A DNA stretch of 64,000 nucleotides from Escherichia phage Mt1B1_P17: sequence record NC_052662.1; one strand, written 5' to 3'. Under the pieces are notes generated by a model. It did no database searches. It had not been told where the DNA came from and saw only the letters and a program-made list of their open reading frames with translations. The position numbers were made by a program, and so were the translations under genes. This document shows, piece after piece, positions 6,800-14,107 of the stretch; position 1 is the stretch's first letter; each line of letters begins with the position of its first letter.

Positions 6800-7006
6800 A
6801 ATAAAATCCTCCTAAACTTTATCTTAACATATAAAAAATAATAAGTCAAGTTTTATTCAATAGATAGCAAAAAGCCTCCAATAAGGAGGCTAATAAATAC
6901 TGTTAATTTGAAATGCTTTATTATAATTGTGCGTTAAGGAGTCGCACCCCTCCATCTTAGAAGGAACCAGGCAAGGTCTTCAAAGATACCGCTGGCAAGC
7001 GATATT

Positions 7007-7085
7007 TGGAGGCGGGAATTGGATTTGAACCAATGATCTCCAGCATATGAAACTGGCGAGGACGACCAGACTCCTCTATCCCGCT
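7007..7085 (-). tRNA. tRNA-Met (anticodon CAT; could also be Ile-lysidine or initiator)
   Basis: cloverleaf read by hand: anticodon stem CCAGT/GCTGG, loop TTCATAT, T-arm ATTGG-TTCAAAT-CCAAT, CCA encoded; position 1-72 mismatched. Confidence 0.7.
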
Positions 7086-7091
7086 ATTAGG

Positions 7092-7161
7092 TATCCCGTG
7101 CTGGATTCGAACCAGCATCACAATAAGTTGTGGAACTCTTATCCTGTAAGTCTAACGGGAA
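7092..7161 (-). tRNA. atypical tRNA-like element (possible pseudo-tRNA)
   Basis: perfect T-arm GCTGG-TTCGAAT-CCAGC and 6/7 bp acceptor stem, but only about 70 nt and no canonical anticodon arm could be folded. Confidence 0.3.
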
Positions 7162-7163
7162 AT

Positions 7164-7237
7164 TGGTTGTTTCGACAAGAATCGAACTTGTGTCTCACGA
7201 TTATCAGTCGTGGGTTCTACCATTGAACTACGAAACA
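7164..7237 (-). tRNA. tRNA-Ile (anticodon GAT)
   Basis: acceptor TGTTTCG/CGAAACA, D-arm GTTC..GAAC, anticodon stem CACGA/TCGTG with loop CTGATAA, T-loop TTCGATT, CCA encoded. Confidence 0.8.
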
Positions 7238-7243
7238 TTAAAT

Positions 7244-7320
7244 TGGTCGGAATTGCAGGATTCGAACCTGCGACCCTACGCTCCCAAAGCGTATGCTCTA
7301 CCAAACTGAGCTAAATTCCG
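7244..7320 (-). tRNA. tRNA-Pro (anticodon TGG)
   Basis: acceptor CGGAATT/AATTCCG, D-arm GCTC..GAGC, anticodon stem TACGC/GCGTA with loop TTTGGGA, T-arm GCAGG-TTCGAAT-CCTGC, CCA encoded. Confidence 0.8.
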
Positions 7321-7325
7321 TTATA

Positions 7326-7401
7326 TGGCTGGTCTGTCTGGATTTGAACCAAACCTACGACAGTCAAAGTGTCGTGTGCTACCTGACTACACTACAAACC
7401 A
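7326..7401 (-). tRNA. tRNA-Gln (anticodon TTG)
   Basis: acceptor TGGTTTG/CAGACCA (one G-U pair), anticodon stem CGACA/TGTCG with loop CTTTGAC, T-loop TTCAAAT, CCA encoded. Confidence 0.7.
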
Positions 7402-7499
7402 ATAAATCATTTAATGAAGGGCAACCAGAAGAGGTGTGAGAGAAGGAGAAAACCATGAGTAAAAGAGAAAGTTTTCTGGCAACCCTTTATTAAATAATT

Positions 7500-7573
7500 T
7501 GGAGCGTTCTACGAGGATCGAACTCGTGCCGCCGACTTGGAAGGACGGAATGCTACCGCTACACCAAGAACGC
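7500..7573 (-). tRNA. tRNA-Gly (anticodon TCC), tentative
   Basis: acceptor GCGTTCT/AGAACGC, T-arm ACGAG-TTCGATC-CTCGT, anticodon loop CTTCCAA with one T-T mismatch in the stem, CCA encoded. Confidence 0.55.
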
Positions 7574-7584
7574 CCTACCTCTTT

Positions 7585-7613
7585 ACTATACTACATTTTA
7601 CTATTGGTTGTCA
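7585..7613 (-). promoter_or_regulatory. sigma70-like promoter (TTGACA, 17 nt spacer, TATAGT) reading into the tRNA sub-cluster
   Basis: CTATTGACAA motif copy on the minus strand, about 35 nt upstream of the tRNA-Gly 5' end. Confidence 0.5.
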
Positions 7614-7887
7614 ATAGTTTTATTGAGTGGGACAGTGACGAGTATCCCATTGGGTGACTAGCCCTACGTTCGGTAAGCTAACTTAAAATAATACAAAACC
7701 AAAGTCAAATATTATTCTTCGTTGCTGTCGATGGGAGAGCCGCTTCTTCTTTTGCCCCATCCAACCCTACTCCGGTCAAGTTTCAGGTAACTCTTTTTGT
7801 GATCAACACAATACTAAGAACACTGTCTTTCGAGCAGACCTTGTGCACAGGATACGACGATCAATCACAGTGCTCTTAATGTTGTGT

Positions 7888-7962
7888 TGGTGCTCCCACT
7901 CTGAATCGAACAGAGATCCACGGATTACAAAACCGTTGTAATAGCCATTATACTATAGGAGC
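7888..7962 (-). tRNA. tRNA-Thr (anticodon TGT), tentative
   Basis: acceptor GCTCCTA/TGGGAGC, T-arm CTCTG-TTCGATT-CAGAG, anticodon loop TTTGTAA on a 4 bp stem with one U-U pair, CCA encoded. Confidence 0.5.
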
Positions 7963-7968
7963 AAAGCT

Positions 7969-8045
7969 GGGACTCGGCAGGATTCGATACCTGCAATTCC
8001 AGAAGCCTCTTGGCGACTGGGGGTTTACCTTAACTCTACAAGTCC
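7969..8045 (-). tRNA. atypical tRNA-like element with 8-nt T-loop
   Basis: 7 bp acceptor stem (GGACTTG/CGAGTCC) and T-arm GCAGG-TATCGAAT-CCTGC, but the central region folds as an extended hairpin, not a canonical anticodon arm; no CCA. Confidence 0.3.
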
Positions 8046-8052
8046 ATAATTC

Positions 8053-8138
8053 TGGCGATGAGTATAGGATTTGAACCTATATCGTTCTTTCGAACACGGA
8101 TTAACAGTCCGCCGCTTAAACCATTCAGCCAACTCATC
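8053..8138 (-). tRNA. type II (long variable arm) tRNA, anticodon loop reads GTT
   Basis: acceptor GATGAGT/ACTCATC, anticodon stem GCGGA/TCCGT with loop CTGTTAA, 15-nt variable arm hairpin GTTCGAAAGAAC, T-arm ATAGG-TTCAAAT-CCTAT, CCA encoded. Confidence 0.5.
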
Positions 8139-8144
8139 TTAATT

Positions 8145-8232
8145 TGGTGGTGAGTGATGGAGTCGAACCACCCGAATCGCAATGATAACAGATTTACAGT
8201 CTGCCCCGCTACCCCTACGGAATTAACTCACC
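8145..8232 (-). tRNA. tRNA-Tyr (anticodon GTA), type II
   Basis: acceptor GGTGAGT/ACTCACC, anticodon stem GCAGA/TCTGT with loop CTGTAAA, long variable arm, T-arm GGTGG-TTCGACT-CCATC, CCA encoded. Confidence 0.7.
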
Positions 8233-8362
8233 TAAATACTAATATTTAAATTCTTTTTAAAATAGCCAGTGTTCACACCACTAACTATGAGTTATCGGTA
8301 AGATGGTGGAGGCCATCTGCCGAAAGTTTACTCTATTAAAGTAAGCTATATTAAAAAGAACT

Positions 8363-8448
8363 TGGCGGTAGATGTAGGACTCGAACCTACACGCCGTTTC
8401 CGACTACAGTTTAGCAAACTGTCGTGGCTACCATTTCACCAATCTACC
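8363..8448 (-). tRNA. tRNA-Ser (anticodon GCT), type II
   Basis: acceptor GGTAGAT/ATCTACC, anticodon stem ACAGT/ACTGT with loop TTGCTAA, long variable arm, T-arm GTAGG-TTCGAGT-CCTAC, CCA encoded. Confidence 0.8.
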
Positions 8449-8452
8449 AATC

Positions 8453-8543
8453 TGGCGGAAGGAGGGAGAGTCGAACTCCCAAGGCTCTTTCAAGCTCGGC
8501 GGTTTTCAAGACCGTTTTCGTCGCCACGTCGATTTGCCCTTCC
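8453..8543 (-). tRNA. tRNA-Ser (anticodon TGA), type II
   Basis: acceptor GGAAGGG/TCCTTCC, anticodon loop CTTGAAA, long variable arm, T-arm GGGAG-TTCGACT-CTCCC, CCA encoded. Confidence 0.7.
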
Positions 8544-8551
8544 ATACTTAT

Positions 8552-8580
8552 AATCTAACATAAAATAATGTTAGTTGTCA
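8552..8580 (-). promoter_or_regulatory. sigma70-like promoter (TTGACA, 17 nt spacer, TAGATT) upstream of the tRNA-Ser pair
   Basis: third copy of the CTATTGACAA motif on the minus strand. Confidence 0.4.
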
Positions 8581-8777
8581 ATAGTTTTTTAAAACATTTT
8601 ACCATGAATGGTGACTCCACCAACCCCCGTTCTCAACGAACGGTGCTCTTCGAGCATTTATGTCTTCTAATATAACCGTGGCCTTTGTTTATAATGTCTG
8701 ACATACTTGCCTCATTCTCTGCCACCATGATCAGTAGTGGGTTCAAATCACTTGAGCTAATTCATGTTAAAATGTTC

Positions 8778-8852
8778 TGGTGTCTTTACAAGGAATCGAA
8801 CCTTGACTAAGAGTTTAGAAGACTCCTGTGCTATCCATTACACCATAAAGAC
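8778..8852 (-). tRNA. tRNA-Arg (anticodon TCT)
   Basis: acceptor GTCTTTA/TAAAGAC, D-arm GTGT..CAC, anticodon stem GGAGT/ACTCT with loop CTTCTAA, T-arm CAAGG-TTCGATT-CCTTG, CCA encoded. Confidence 0.8.
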
Positions 8853-8854
8853 GT

Positions 8855-8929
8855 TGGTGGCCCTGGCTGGTTTCGATCCAGCTACCTATCGGTTATGAGC
8901 CGACAGCTCTCCCATTGAGCTACAGGGCC
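8855..8929 (-). tRNA. tRNA-Met (anticodon CAT; second CAT tRNA)
   Basis: perfect acceptor GGCCCTG/CAGGGCC, D-arm GCTC..GAGC, anticodon stem GTCGG/CCGAT with loop CTCATAA, T-loop ATCGAAA, CCA encoded. Confidence 0.7.
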
Positions 8930-9133
8930 ATAAATGTGGTAACAGAGACGCTGACGATTGTAGAGAACCGCTACATTCTCTAAGACCAAGCCCAACTTTC
9001 AGCGTAAAAGTTCTTGAGCCGAGACTATTCCTTTTCCTCTTTGGTAGCTAACCTCTGAAGAAGTAGTCTCTAACACTACCGCAGTGCAAGCCCCTCTTAA
9101 CAAAAGTCAACGACCCTGTTACCACACTTGATG

Positions 9134-9167
9134 AACGTATCCTAACATATGAAGGATACGTTTGTCA
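9134..9167 (-). promoter_or_regulatory. promoter-like TTGACA box overlapping a 9-bp inverted repeat (possible operator)
   Basis: fourth CTATTGACAA copy (plus 9162..9167); downstream element is the palindrome AACGTATCC-N11-GGATACGTT (9134..9162); -10 is weak. Confidence 0.35.
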
Positions 9168-9175
9168 ATAGTTAT

Positions 9176-9490
9176 TTAAGCATATTCTGTTACTTCTTCA
9201 CTATCTTTCTTTTCTAGAAGAGCAACAACCAAAGCTTCTGCGTTAAAAGTATTAATTTCAAGATCCATCTCTCGCATCAGAGCCAAGAAATCAATAACTT
9301 TAACATCTTTAGTGATTACAATAGAAGTTGTACCATTGTTTTCAGATGTGTATTTTTCTGGATGGAAAAGAAAAACTGCATTGCCGTTACCATCTTCAAA
9401 CACGTGTTTTTCTAATAGAGACATTGTTCCTCCTAATCTGTTAGTTGTTCGTCCTCTACCAAGTTTGACACGAGAACGTCTGTTATACAT
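9176..9490 (-). CDS. hypothetical protein
   Basis: 104 aa ORF, first gene of the leftward unit upstream of the tRNA cluster. Confidence 0.5.
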   Translation of the reverse strand: MYNRRSRVKLGRGRTTNRLGGTMSLLEKHVFEDGNGNAVFLFHPEKYTSENNGTTSIVITKDVKVIDFLALMREMDLEINTFNAEALVVALLEKKDSEEVTEYA

Positions 9491-9949: not shown

Positions 9950-10140
9950 ATACTGATCTATAGATCAAGTATTATTTATAATAATTTATTATTTTATTTT
10001 TAATTGATAGAAGTTGATCTGTACGTACCAGTTCTGATACACTGTACCTGTTTGTTAGATCTAATAATTATTTATTATTAATATTTAATAATTATTAATC
10101 TAGTACAGAGTACAGTACTTGAGTACAGAGTACTACATCA
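9950..10140. repeat. AT-rich divergent intergenic region with palindromes and short direct repeats
   Basis: palindrome TGATCTATAGATCA, a roughly 45-bp AT-rich imperfect inverted repeat centred near 10075, and AGTACAG x3 with AGTACT palindromes at 10101..10135. Confidence 0.5.
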
Positions 10141-13199: not shown

Positions 13200-13556
13200 A
13201 TGAGTGGTATTGAAAACAACATTTGTTACCAACCTCTTACCTGGATTGGTGAGGGTCATTATGCGCAACGTGTTATCGTCTGTGCTGCGAATAAGTATAT
13301 TTTGAATAATGGTGAAGAGTTAATTATTCCTTGTGTTCGACATGCAAATCCTGTACTATATGCACAGTTAAGCGTGTTGAAAGAAGCAGGTGTAATCAAC
13401 AAAACTTTGTGCACACCAGATAATCAAGGCTTTATCGATCAGTATTACAATTGGTGGAGTCGTGCGGATGCTTACATCATCGCGGAAAATGCTGACCAGA
13501 TCGACCATGAGCGTAATGGTCACGACCATGAATTATTTAGCGAGGGATTATACTAA
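13200..13556 (+). CDS. hypothetical protein
   Basis: 118 aa, RBS GAGGAGGA. Confidence 0.55.
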   Translation: MSGIENNICYQPLTWIGEGHYAQRVIVCAANKYILNNGEELIIPCVRHANPVLYAQLSVLKEAGVINKTLCTPDNQGFIDQYYNWWSRADAYIIAENADQIDHERNGHDHELFSEGLY

Positions 13557-14107
13557 TGTTTATTACAAGCGATTTGCATTTTATGCATAAACGTATTCGA
13601 GAGTTTGCTCCTGAATATCGTCCGTGGGAAGATATGGACCACATGACAGAAGCCTTGATCGAAGCATGGAACAAATGTGCTACTACTCCTGGTGTTAAGA
13701 TGTGGCATTTGGGCGACTTCTGTTTCGGAACTGAAGAAGATACCCGTAAAATTGCTTCCCGTCTCCAAGGAGATATCACCTACTGTGTTGGGAACCATGA
13801 CTACAGCAAACACCGAGAAGTGCTTGCAGAGTATGGAGAAGTGGTGTATTATGACGAAGTGAAATATCAGAAGCTGTTCTTCGTCTTAAGCCATTACCCT
13901 ATGGCCTCCTGGAATAAACAAGGTCGTGGATCAATCATGCTACACGGGCATTCCCACGGATCTTTCCCTGATGAAGCTTATGGTAAAATGTTAGATGTGG
14001 GTTGGGATGCACACGGAAAAATCTTGCATTTTGATGAGATAATTTCTATGATGAGTAAACGAGATATCGTGACTGTAGACCATCACAAAATAATCAAAGG
14101 AGAATAA
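13556..14107 (+). CDS. calcineurin-like metallophosphoesterase (candidate RNA end-healing phosphatase)
   Basis: 183 aa; motifs DLHFMH, GDFCFG, GNHDY, LHGHSHG; immediately followed by ligase-like and kinase genes. Confidence 0.7.
   Translation: MFITSDLHFMHKRIREFAPEYRPWEDMDHMTEALIEAWNKCATTPGVKMWHLGDFCFGTEEDTRKIASRLQGDITYCVGNHDYSKHREVLAEYGEVVYYDEVKYQKLFFVLSHYPMASWNKQGRGSIMLHGHSHGSFPDEAYGKMLDVGWDAHGKILHFDEIISMMSKRDIVTVDHHKIIKGE

Follow-up and report, generated by a model that had tools for sequence, protein, structure and literature searches.

Structured RNA elements between the tRNA genes of Escherichia phage Mt1B1_P17: probable non-coding RNA cassettes with a possible anti-defense role

The transfer RNA (tRNA) clusters of phages T4 and T5 have been known for decades to encode small stable RNAs to which no function has been assigned (PMC3014915, PMC9697503). 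The locus compared with them here is the tRNA array of Escherichia phage Mt1B1_P17 (NC_052662.1), contained in a 64,000-nucleotide (nt) stretch of that genome which we call the window. An original prediction, made from the letters of the window alone, had singled out three non-tRNA spacers of the array as candidate small stable RNAs of a T4-like phage. The phage is a different one: across the searched part of the array region (6850-9250) it shares more than 99% identity with E. coli myoviruses of the phAPEC8 type (genus Phapecoctavirus, subfamily Stephanstirmvirinae). The three spacers, referred to as intervals A (7620-7887), B (8585-8777) and C (8930-9133), are real. Interval A is a composite of two elements, A1 and A2, and the three intervals amount to four separate elements of structured RNA on the minus strand, namely C, B, A1 and A2; two further spacers of the same design, D and E, had been overlooked. 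From their sequence comparison, A, B and C are very probably functional structured RNAs. The explanation as a whole, namely four non-coding RNA genes in tRNA operons that behave like cassettes and have a proposed anti-defense role in trans, we regard as likely.

Fold z-scores compare the minimum free energy (MFE) of the minus-strand RNA with that of dinucleotide shuffles, and covariation was controlled with slid alignments and with shuffles. Element C (8930-9133, minus strand) is a structured RNA of about 200 nt between the predicted promoter P1 and tRNA-Met (8855-8929), starting a few nt downstream of the promoter and stopping at +1 of the tRNA. It is closed by a 35-nt inverted repeat, and its architecture consists of an invariant 22-base-pair (bp) closing helix and five internal hairpins, with an MFE of -76.8 kcal/mol (z -5.9). 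The plus strands fold worse (-53.7 kcal/mol and z -3.8 for C, z -2.3 for A1), and the supported helices of the elements are rich in G-U pairs, which are C-A mismatches on the opposite strand. C is found in Phapecoctavirus only, in two lineages of 81% identity. Across their ~38 differing positions the 66 predicted pairs are still 99.7% paired, 8 of them with double compensatory changes and 3 with single compatible changes, against 0-1 in the slid controls.

Element B (8585-8777, minus strand) is a structured RNA of about 190 nt that extends from just after tRNA-Arg (8778-8852) to just before the predicted promoter P2 and combines a 16-bp closing helix with a multi-branch core (z -4.4). By BLAST it is present in all Phapecoctavirus genomes, and homologues of ~70% identity occur in Seunavirus, which belongs to another subfamily, Vequintavirinae (PVP-SE1, GAP31, 4MG, FENT2 and others). 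There too the element is part of the tRNA array and at its 3' end runs straight into tRNA-Leu(UAA), a mid-operon position and not a terminal one. In an 8-sequence alignment the 59 consensus pairs are 96% paired; compensatory double changes are seen at 18 pairs compared with 4-5 in the slid controls, and 0 of 500 shuffles reach the observed values. The single-stranded blocks UUAGCUCA, CUGAUCAU, GAGAAUGAG and GGUGGAGUCACCAU are invariant. A covariance model of B (R1) gives 164-231 bits on the homologues and recovers additional ones from IMG/VR and from metagenomes, none outside these two phage groups; it rejected as chance ~120 IMG/VR matches that had come from a 14-mer scan. Both GC-rich hairpins quoted in the original prediction exist, and both are in B only, as minor parts of larger folds: CCGTTC-N5-GAACGG (plus-strand positions 8628-8644) is a conserved helix (helix 7), and TGCTC-TTC-GAGCA (plus-strand positions 8645-8657) is lineage-specific, not being kept in the Seunavirus homologues. 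In PVP-SE1 (L002:3186-3660), a tRNA-Leu-like 5' fragment follows directly after B, then an unannotated open reading frame (ORF) with an HNH-like motif (DHIDRD...N), and an intact tRNA-Leu is located ~480 nt beyond the fragment; the arrangement looks like a homing-endonuclease insertion.

Interval A taken whole has a z-score of only -1.8. Its 5' hairpin is element A1 (7806-7887, minus strand), an 82-nt irregular hairpin immediately 3' of tRNA-Thr (7888-7962) with a z-score of -4.8 and an invariant internal core, GAUUGAUCGUCGU...UCUGCUCGAA(A)G. Homologues of A1 are found in the unrelated siphoviruses SCNJ1-C, PJ16 and Bas79, in 16 IMG/VR contigs, in E. coli prophages and on one Salmonella plasmid, and across them the 25 pairs are 99.5% paired with 7 compensatory. 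In several contigs A1 is located ~190 nt downstream of a tRNA-Arg(UCU) cluster, and at other loci it lies in a non-coding stretch of several hundred nt among structural genes. One E. coli prophage (L157:3136-3981) carries the A1-like hairpin among its head and packaging genes, in a ~850-nt gap with no annotated gene; the gap has promoter-like and terminator-like signals of its own, with a weak DicF-like match at one terminator, and similar signals accompany the hairpin in IMG/VR contigs (L136-L152).

In SCNJ1-C, PJ16 and Bas79 a segment resembling the tag of transfer-messenger RNA (tmRNA), AUAAAUGCAAACGAAGAUCGUUUCCUGAUGGCGGCGUAA, which reads ANEDRFLMAA*, is located ~100 nt upstream of the A1-like hairpin. 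These loci (L132:1316-1471, L133:1317-1460, L134:1281-1453) score a sub-threshold 28-32 bits with the Rfam tmRNA_permuted model, and ARAGORN calls no tmRNA in them. A tmRNA reading of A1 was rejected, the tag-like segment being confined to the siphovirus homologues and absent from the window. A separate observation concerns phage PsgM04F (L129:4007-4190), which has an extra element of ~186 nt after tRNA-Thr with an outer stem like that of A1 and a different interior, suggesting cassette duplication or exchange.

Element A2 (7620-7805, minus strand) is a putative RNA of ~185 nt that ends at the predicted promoter P3. Nearly invariant 5' and 3' blocks surround a hypervariable central hairpin, for which three unrelated sequence versions exist (alignments A3 and A4). 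A2 is absent from bacterial species genomes. In Citrobacter phage Tr1 its homologue comes directly after tRNA-Thr and is followed by an ORF. In relatives the slot separating A2 from the tRNA-Gly promoter is a hot spot for insertions: in ZCKP1 (L171:1300-1641) and a metagenomic relative (L170:3079-3477) an XRE/HTH_3 gene, annotated in ZCKP1 as a plasmid antitoxin, stands right after A2, and in Tr1 (L135:2572-2898) the slot holds an ORF of 108 amino acids (aa) belonging to PHROG 8792.

Conservation across related phages, a check named with the original prediction, is thus seen for B, C, A1 and A2, and in B, C and A1 helices are maintained by compensatory changes beyond the controls. A terminal closing helix of ~16-22 bp is shared by C, B and A1 (~11-22 bp when D and E are counted too). 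The elements are not one family, because the similarity detected by the B model is weak (21 bits for D, 15 bits for E) and driven by the closing stems, and paralogy among them was discarded. In BLAST searches of the spacers against E. coli genomes and PLSDB, only A1 (prophages, one plasmid) and D (plasmids) gave matches. For B, C and A2, the wider searches of IMG/VR, metagenomes and GTDB genomes returned the same phage groups or nothing.

The positions of the elements are those of the stable RNAs in phage tRNA operons, both here and in relatives: on the tRNA strand, within a transcription unit and abutting tRNAs. C, B, A1 and A2 are each flush with a tRNA gene or promoter, and D and E also lie between tRNAs. 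The array comprises 11 minus-strand tRNA genes, located by ARAGORN and Rfam from 7007 to 8929. In the order of the RNA strand it reads P1, C, tRNA-Met, tRNA-Arg, B, P2, a tRNA-Ser(TGA)-like stretch, tRNA-Ser(GCT) and D; then tRNA-Tyr, tRNA-Asn, a tRNA-like stretch, tRNA-Thr, A1, A2 and P3; and finally tRNA-Gly, E, tRNA-Gln, tRNA-Pro, tRNA-Ile, a further tRNA-like stretch, tRNA-Met and the terminator. Three sigma-70-type promoters are predicted on the minus strand by consensus scan: P1 (9139..9168, TTGACA-18-TAGGAT with TG), which heads the first tRNA transcription unit, P2 (8552..8581, TTGACA-18-TAGATT with TG), which heads the second, and P3 (7585..7614, TTGACA-18-TATAGT), upstream of tRNA-Gly (7500-7573). 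All three share the motif AACTATTGACAA (repeat families D3 at P1 and D3/D4 at P2), and P3 is kept in front of tRNA-Gly in all Phapecoctavirus relatives and in the more distant phage Tr1. An intrinsic terminator-like hairpin with a U-run (6873..6891, minus strand) marks the end of the array. It is the only minus-strand terminator call outside the tRNA genes, none being made on the RNA strand at the 3' ends of A, B and C; B does contain a single terminator-like call (8642-8658), but on the opposite, plus strand. What comes next after A2 and B in relatives is an ORF or a tRNA.

The proposal that these spacers are non-coding RNAs co-transcribed with tRNAs, as in T4, agrees with the compensatory helices and the conserved operon position, and it also fits the abutment on tRNA ends, the conserved sigma-70-type promoters on the same strand and the T4 and T5 precedents (PMC3014915). 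What it does not carry over from T4 is homology, the elements having none to the T4 or T5 RNAs. A published Phapecoctavirus transcriptome was not found in the literature.

Some stretches of the array look like tRNAs that ARAGORN missed. The class II tRNA-like stretch at 8457-8543 (minus strand) has a score of 37 bits against tRNA-Sec, its counterpart in PsgM04F being tRNA-Ser(TGA), and two tRNA-sized stretches at 7086-7163 and 7963-8052 (minus strand) have a tRNA-like look with TTCGAA T-loop motifs. Spacer E (7402-7499, minus strand) is a long hairpin between tRNA-Gly and tRNA-Gln (z -5.7). Its pyrimidine-rich loop of ~45 nt contains CUCCUU/CCUCUU motifs resembling an anti-Shine-Dalgarno sequence, and the opposite strand reads AAGGAG-7 nt-ATG followed by a 12-codon ORF. 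Outside the array, the AT-rich intergenic region 9950-10140, flanked by divergent genes, has GTACAGAGTAC-like and TTATTTATTATT motifs in several copies, a repeat cluster that may be regulatory or origin-like.

The concrete functional lead comes from element D (8233-8362, minus strand), a cloverleaf-like RNA with a closed stem (z -4.1) between tRNA-Ser (8363-8448) and tRNA-Tyr (8148-8232). The RNA strand of its 53-nt core (8293-8345; further loci are L154:2501-2553 and L156:~1102-1154) runs antisense to the final 52 nt of ColIb-type ibfA/abi, and the core matches ~85 plasmids, mostly conjugative, under a 345-nt gene that PGAP names 'abortive infection protein'. We identify this gene as ibfA of ColIb-P9 because the published coordinates 13401-13745 (PMC8004404) give the same 114-aa ORF. 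The IbfA protein has a weak match to a 2TM effector (E=0.0057). Phage cores match different plasmid alleles at an edit distance of 0-1: the core in the window is identical to the pRK1 allele at 52 of 53 positions and to CP090297 at all 53, and that of phage iGC_PHA_EC001 is identical to the ColIb-P9 allele (53/53), the pRK1 and ColIb-P9 alleles differing by 12 nt. D has extended complementarity to a defense-gene mRNA, with a predicted core-ibfA duplex of -120 kcal/mol. The allele differences in the second hairpin are compensatory (AGAUGG/CCAUCU vs AAGUGG/CCACUU) yet alter four IbfA residues, which suggests that RNA structure is under selection. The homology extends in some phages to 14 nt beyond the ibfA stop codon.

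A total of 154 phage records carry the D core, among them those of phi92-like Justusliebigvirus and T5-like phages. The T5-like phage phiLLS has the whole D cassette between a promoter and tRNA-Tyr, and Tr1 has a D-like core ahead of its first tRNA-Met. A search of the 48-kb tRNA/early region of T5 (20-68 kb) did not find D, not even in the syntenic slot, where T5 has the same promoter and tRNA-Tyr as phiLLS and a different closed-stem leader. This leader from P14a to tRNA-Tyr (L174:15429-15524, minus strand) is a closed-stem structured RNA, CAUAUCUGAAUGA...UCAUUCAAAUAU, to which none of the eight stable RNAs annotated in T5 corresponds. T5 and BF23 are the classic targets of the ColIb abortive infection (Abi) system, which collapses the membrane potential; first described over 50 years ago, the system still has no resolved mechanism (PMC10644984). 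D may be the phage version of an antisense or antitoxin RNA acting on ibfA/abi, kept allele-matched and common to Stephanstirmvirinae and some T5-like phages. A published ibfA antisense RNA was not found in the literature.

We propose the following explanation. C, B, A1 and A2 would be transcribed within the phage tRNA operons from the three sigma-70-type promoters. Since the junctions with tRNAs are flush, the RNAs would be released by tRNA processing, with RNase P acting at the 5' end of the next tRNA and 3'-end processing acting on the upstream tRNA; because the closing helices are long, RNase III or RNase E might cut them as well. The elements behave as modular cassettes, one slot holding different cassettes in related phages and one cassette occurring in unrelated phages. 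Supplied along with the phage tRNAs, the RNAs would act in trans against defenses, whether as antitoxin mimics, as decoys or by an antisense mechanism. In the case of D, the RNA would base-pair with the mRNA of ibfA or stand in for an antisense regulator that the plasmid encodes, this phage copy of the antisense keeping the Abi gene silent during infection. An anti-defense role of A, B and C themselves, argued by analogy with D, is possible but somewhat doubtful. More tentative still, and slightly less probable, is the general idea that the tRNA operons of large virulent enterobacterial phages double as anti-defense RNA islands, made of swappable closed-stem cassettes that would each be directed at a particular defense; B, C, A1 and A2 would then be orphan cassettes against defenses not yet identified.

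Several new RNA families supported by covariation are defined by this work, together with cassettes that are exchangeable across unrelated phages, and one of these cassettes, D, is an allele-matched antisense copy of the ColIb ibf/abi gene. If the lead from D is true, it would explain at least some of the phage tRNA-cluster RNAs, antisense RNA would join the known anti-defense tools of phages, and simple experiments could directly test how ibfA is regulated and how phages escape it.

A number of points weigh against this explanation. The shuffle control overstates significance when the sequences are related. Covariation in C rests on effectively two lineages, phylogenetic depth is limited for both C and A2, and the single-sequence and alignment folds of A2 disagree on its global fold. 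BLAST against 5,426 complete E. coli genomes and the PLSDB plasmids revealed neither a homologue nor an extended complement of B, C or A2, so that the anti-defense role is extrapolated from D. As regards D, the segment shared with ibfA could reflect recombination without selection for pairing. The conserved plasmid sequence TTGACA-17-TAGCTT, just upstream on the antisense strand, is consensus-like only and received no call from the scanner; the candidate plasmid antisense start downstream of it, near CTTACTTT, is a prediction. Finally, long closing helices and positions at the ends of units would also fit purely cis roles in processing, stabilization or insulation.

This last point leads to the rival explanation that survives best, although we consider it unlikely: the elements would be cis-only modules that let RNase III/RNase E enter, protect 5' or 3' ends or insulate the folding of the tRNAs, and the excised pieces would be functionless. 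C comes directly after a promoter, A and B are at the ends of units just before the next promoter, and a terminal closing helix is present in C, B, A1, D and E alike. That T5 has a different closed-stem leader in the D slot means that design could matter more than content. Such a view has difficulty with the content that is nevertheless kept. B retains long invariant single-stranded blocks and internal helices over two subfamilies at ~70% identity, and in Seunavirus it is mid-operon; the A1 core is invariant in siphoviruses and prophages, several of them without a tRNA in the DNA stretch fetched; and the interior of D specifically copies a defense gene in antisense.

Far less probable is an origin as decayed or expanded tRNA genes, either pseudogenes or tRNA-derived RNAs like T4 rnaC and T5 RNA1/RNA2, of which the former has a true T arm and the latter are labeled tRNA-like in the T5 annotation. 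A resemblance is seen in B, where UUAGCUCA is similar to tRNA positions 7-14 and the 3' third reads GAGC-G-CCGUU-7 nt-AACGG-AGGUC-GGUG, like the 3' strand of a D-stem, an anticodon arm and a 5-nt variable loop; D, for its part, folds as a cloverleaf with a closing stem. The putative T loop of B, however, has 4 nt, with G at position 33, and covariation is strongest in helices without an equivalent in tRNAs. No tRNA is found in A, B or C by ARAGORN or, even at E<=10, by the Rfam tRNA model, in agreement with the original prediction. When B is compared with 119 phage tRNAs by short-word BLAST, the matches reach only E=0.29, compared with E=8e-4 for T4 rnaC against T arms. A tRNA ancestry of B is recorded as something that may be the case, statistically unsupported. 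The claim that the intervals carry no ORF has to be softened to short ORFs only, of 25-37 aa and on both strands, but that these stretches, over which the WPEC and PsgM04F records place 'hypothetical proteins', encode small proteins is next to negligible in probability, given 1-nt indels between homologues in B and C, an A2 ORF placed in the hypervariable segment, ORFs annotated over A1 homologues that keep no common frame and have no PHROG family, and substitutions that are paired across helices and not three-periodic.

It remains to place the elements among known RNA families. A covariance-model scan with Rfam had been named as a check in the original prediction, and it yielded no family match for A, B or C: with Rfam 15 at the gathering threshold only tRNAs pass in the whole window, and at E<=10 on the array nothing is reported inside 7620-7887, 8585-8777 or 8930-9133. 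ARAGORN finds no tmRNA in the window, and there is none in the array at E<=10. GOLLD and ROOL are structured RNAs of phages and prophages that are often found beside tRNA genes (PMC12286853), as are the elements here, and no Rfam match to either was obtained in the window at threshold or in the array at E<=10. The bacterial Y RNA-like YrlA has a long end-pairing stem and a tRNA-like module and is encoded by some phages (PMC4201824). Its Rfam model (RF02553) gives only a sub-threshold match of 22.8 bits, which is over genuine tRNAs and not over A, B or C, and these three have no T-arm motif. Size also separates the elements from GOLLD and ROOL, which at roughly 600-800 nt are much larger.

Among antisense and antitoxin RNAs, Sok, SR4 and RatA are type I antitoxins or cis-antisense RNAs, and a two-stem-loop fold complementary to the 3' end of a toxin mRNA is typical of such antisense regulators. 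ToxI is of another kind, a repeated, protein-binding type III antitoxin and not an antisense RNA; the pseudo-ToxI of phage PhiTE, directed against ToxIN, is an example of antitoxin-RNA mimicry by a phage. It is D alone that can be likened to the Sok/SR4/RatA type, as a complement of a defense-gene mRNA with two stem-loops, whereas A, B and C have no identified target. In a type I toxin-antitoxin reading, both IbfA as the toxin and the plasmid antisense RNA are only putative.

The closest relatives in kind are the stable RNAs of T4 and T5. Direct similarity was not detected: model R1 has no significant match in the T4 rnaC/rnaD region, and BLAST of all elements against 48 kb of T5, its eight stable RNAs included, gave nothing relevant. 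T4 rnaC also has a canonical T arm, which A, B and C do not, and the T4 and T5 RNAs have been seen experimentally, whereas the elements described here are known from sequence alone. What they have in common with the elements is setting and design. T4 rnaC and rnaD (species 1 and 2 RNAs) are likewise non-tRNA RNAs on the tRNA strand that abut tRNA genes, T5 RNAI, RNAIII, RNA1, RNA2, RNA2H, RNAIV, RNA3 and RNAX occupy the same type of setting, and the T5 leader from P14a to tRNA-Tyr has the same closed-stem design. The elements of Mt1B1_P17 are new families within this known kind of phage RNA.

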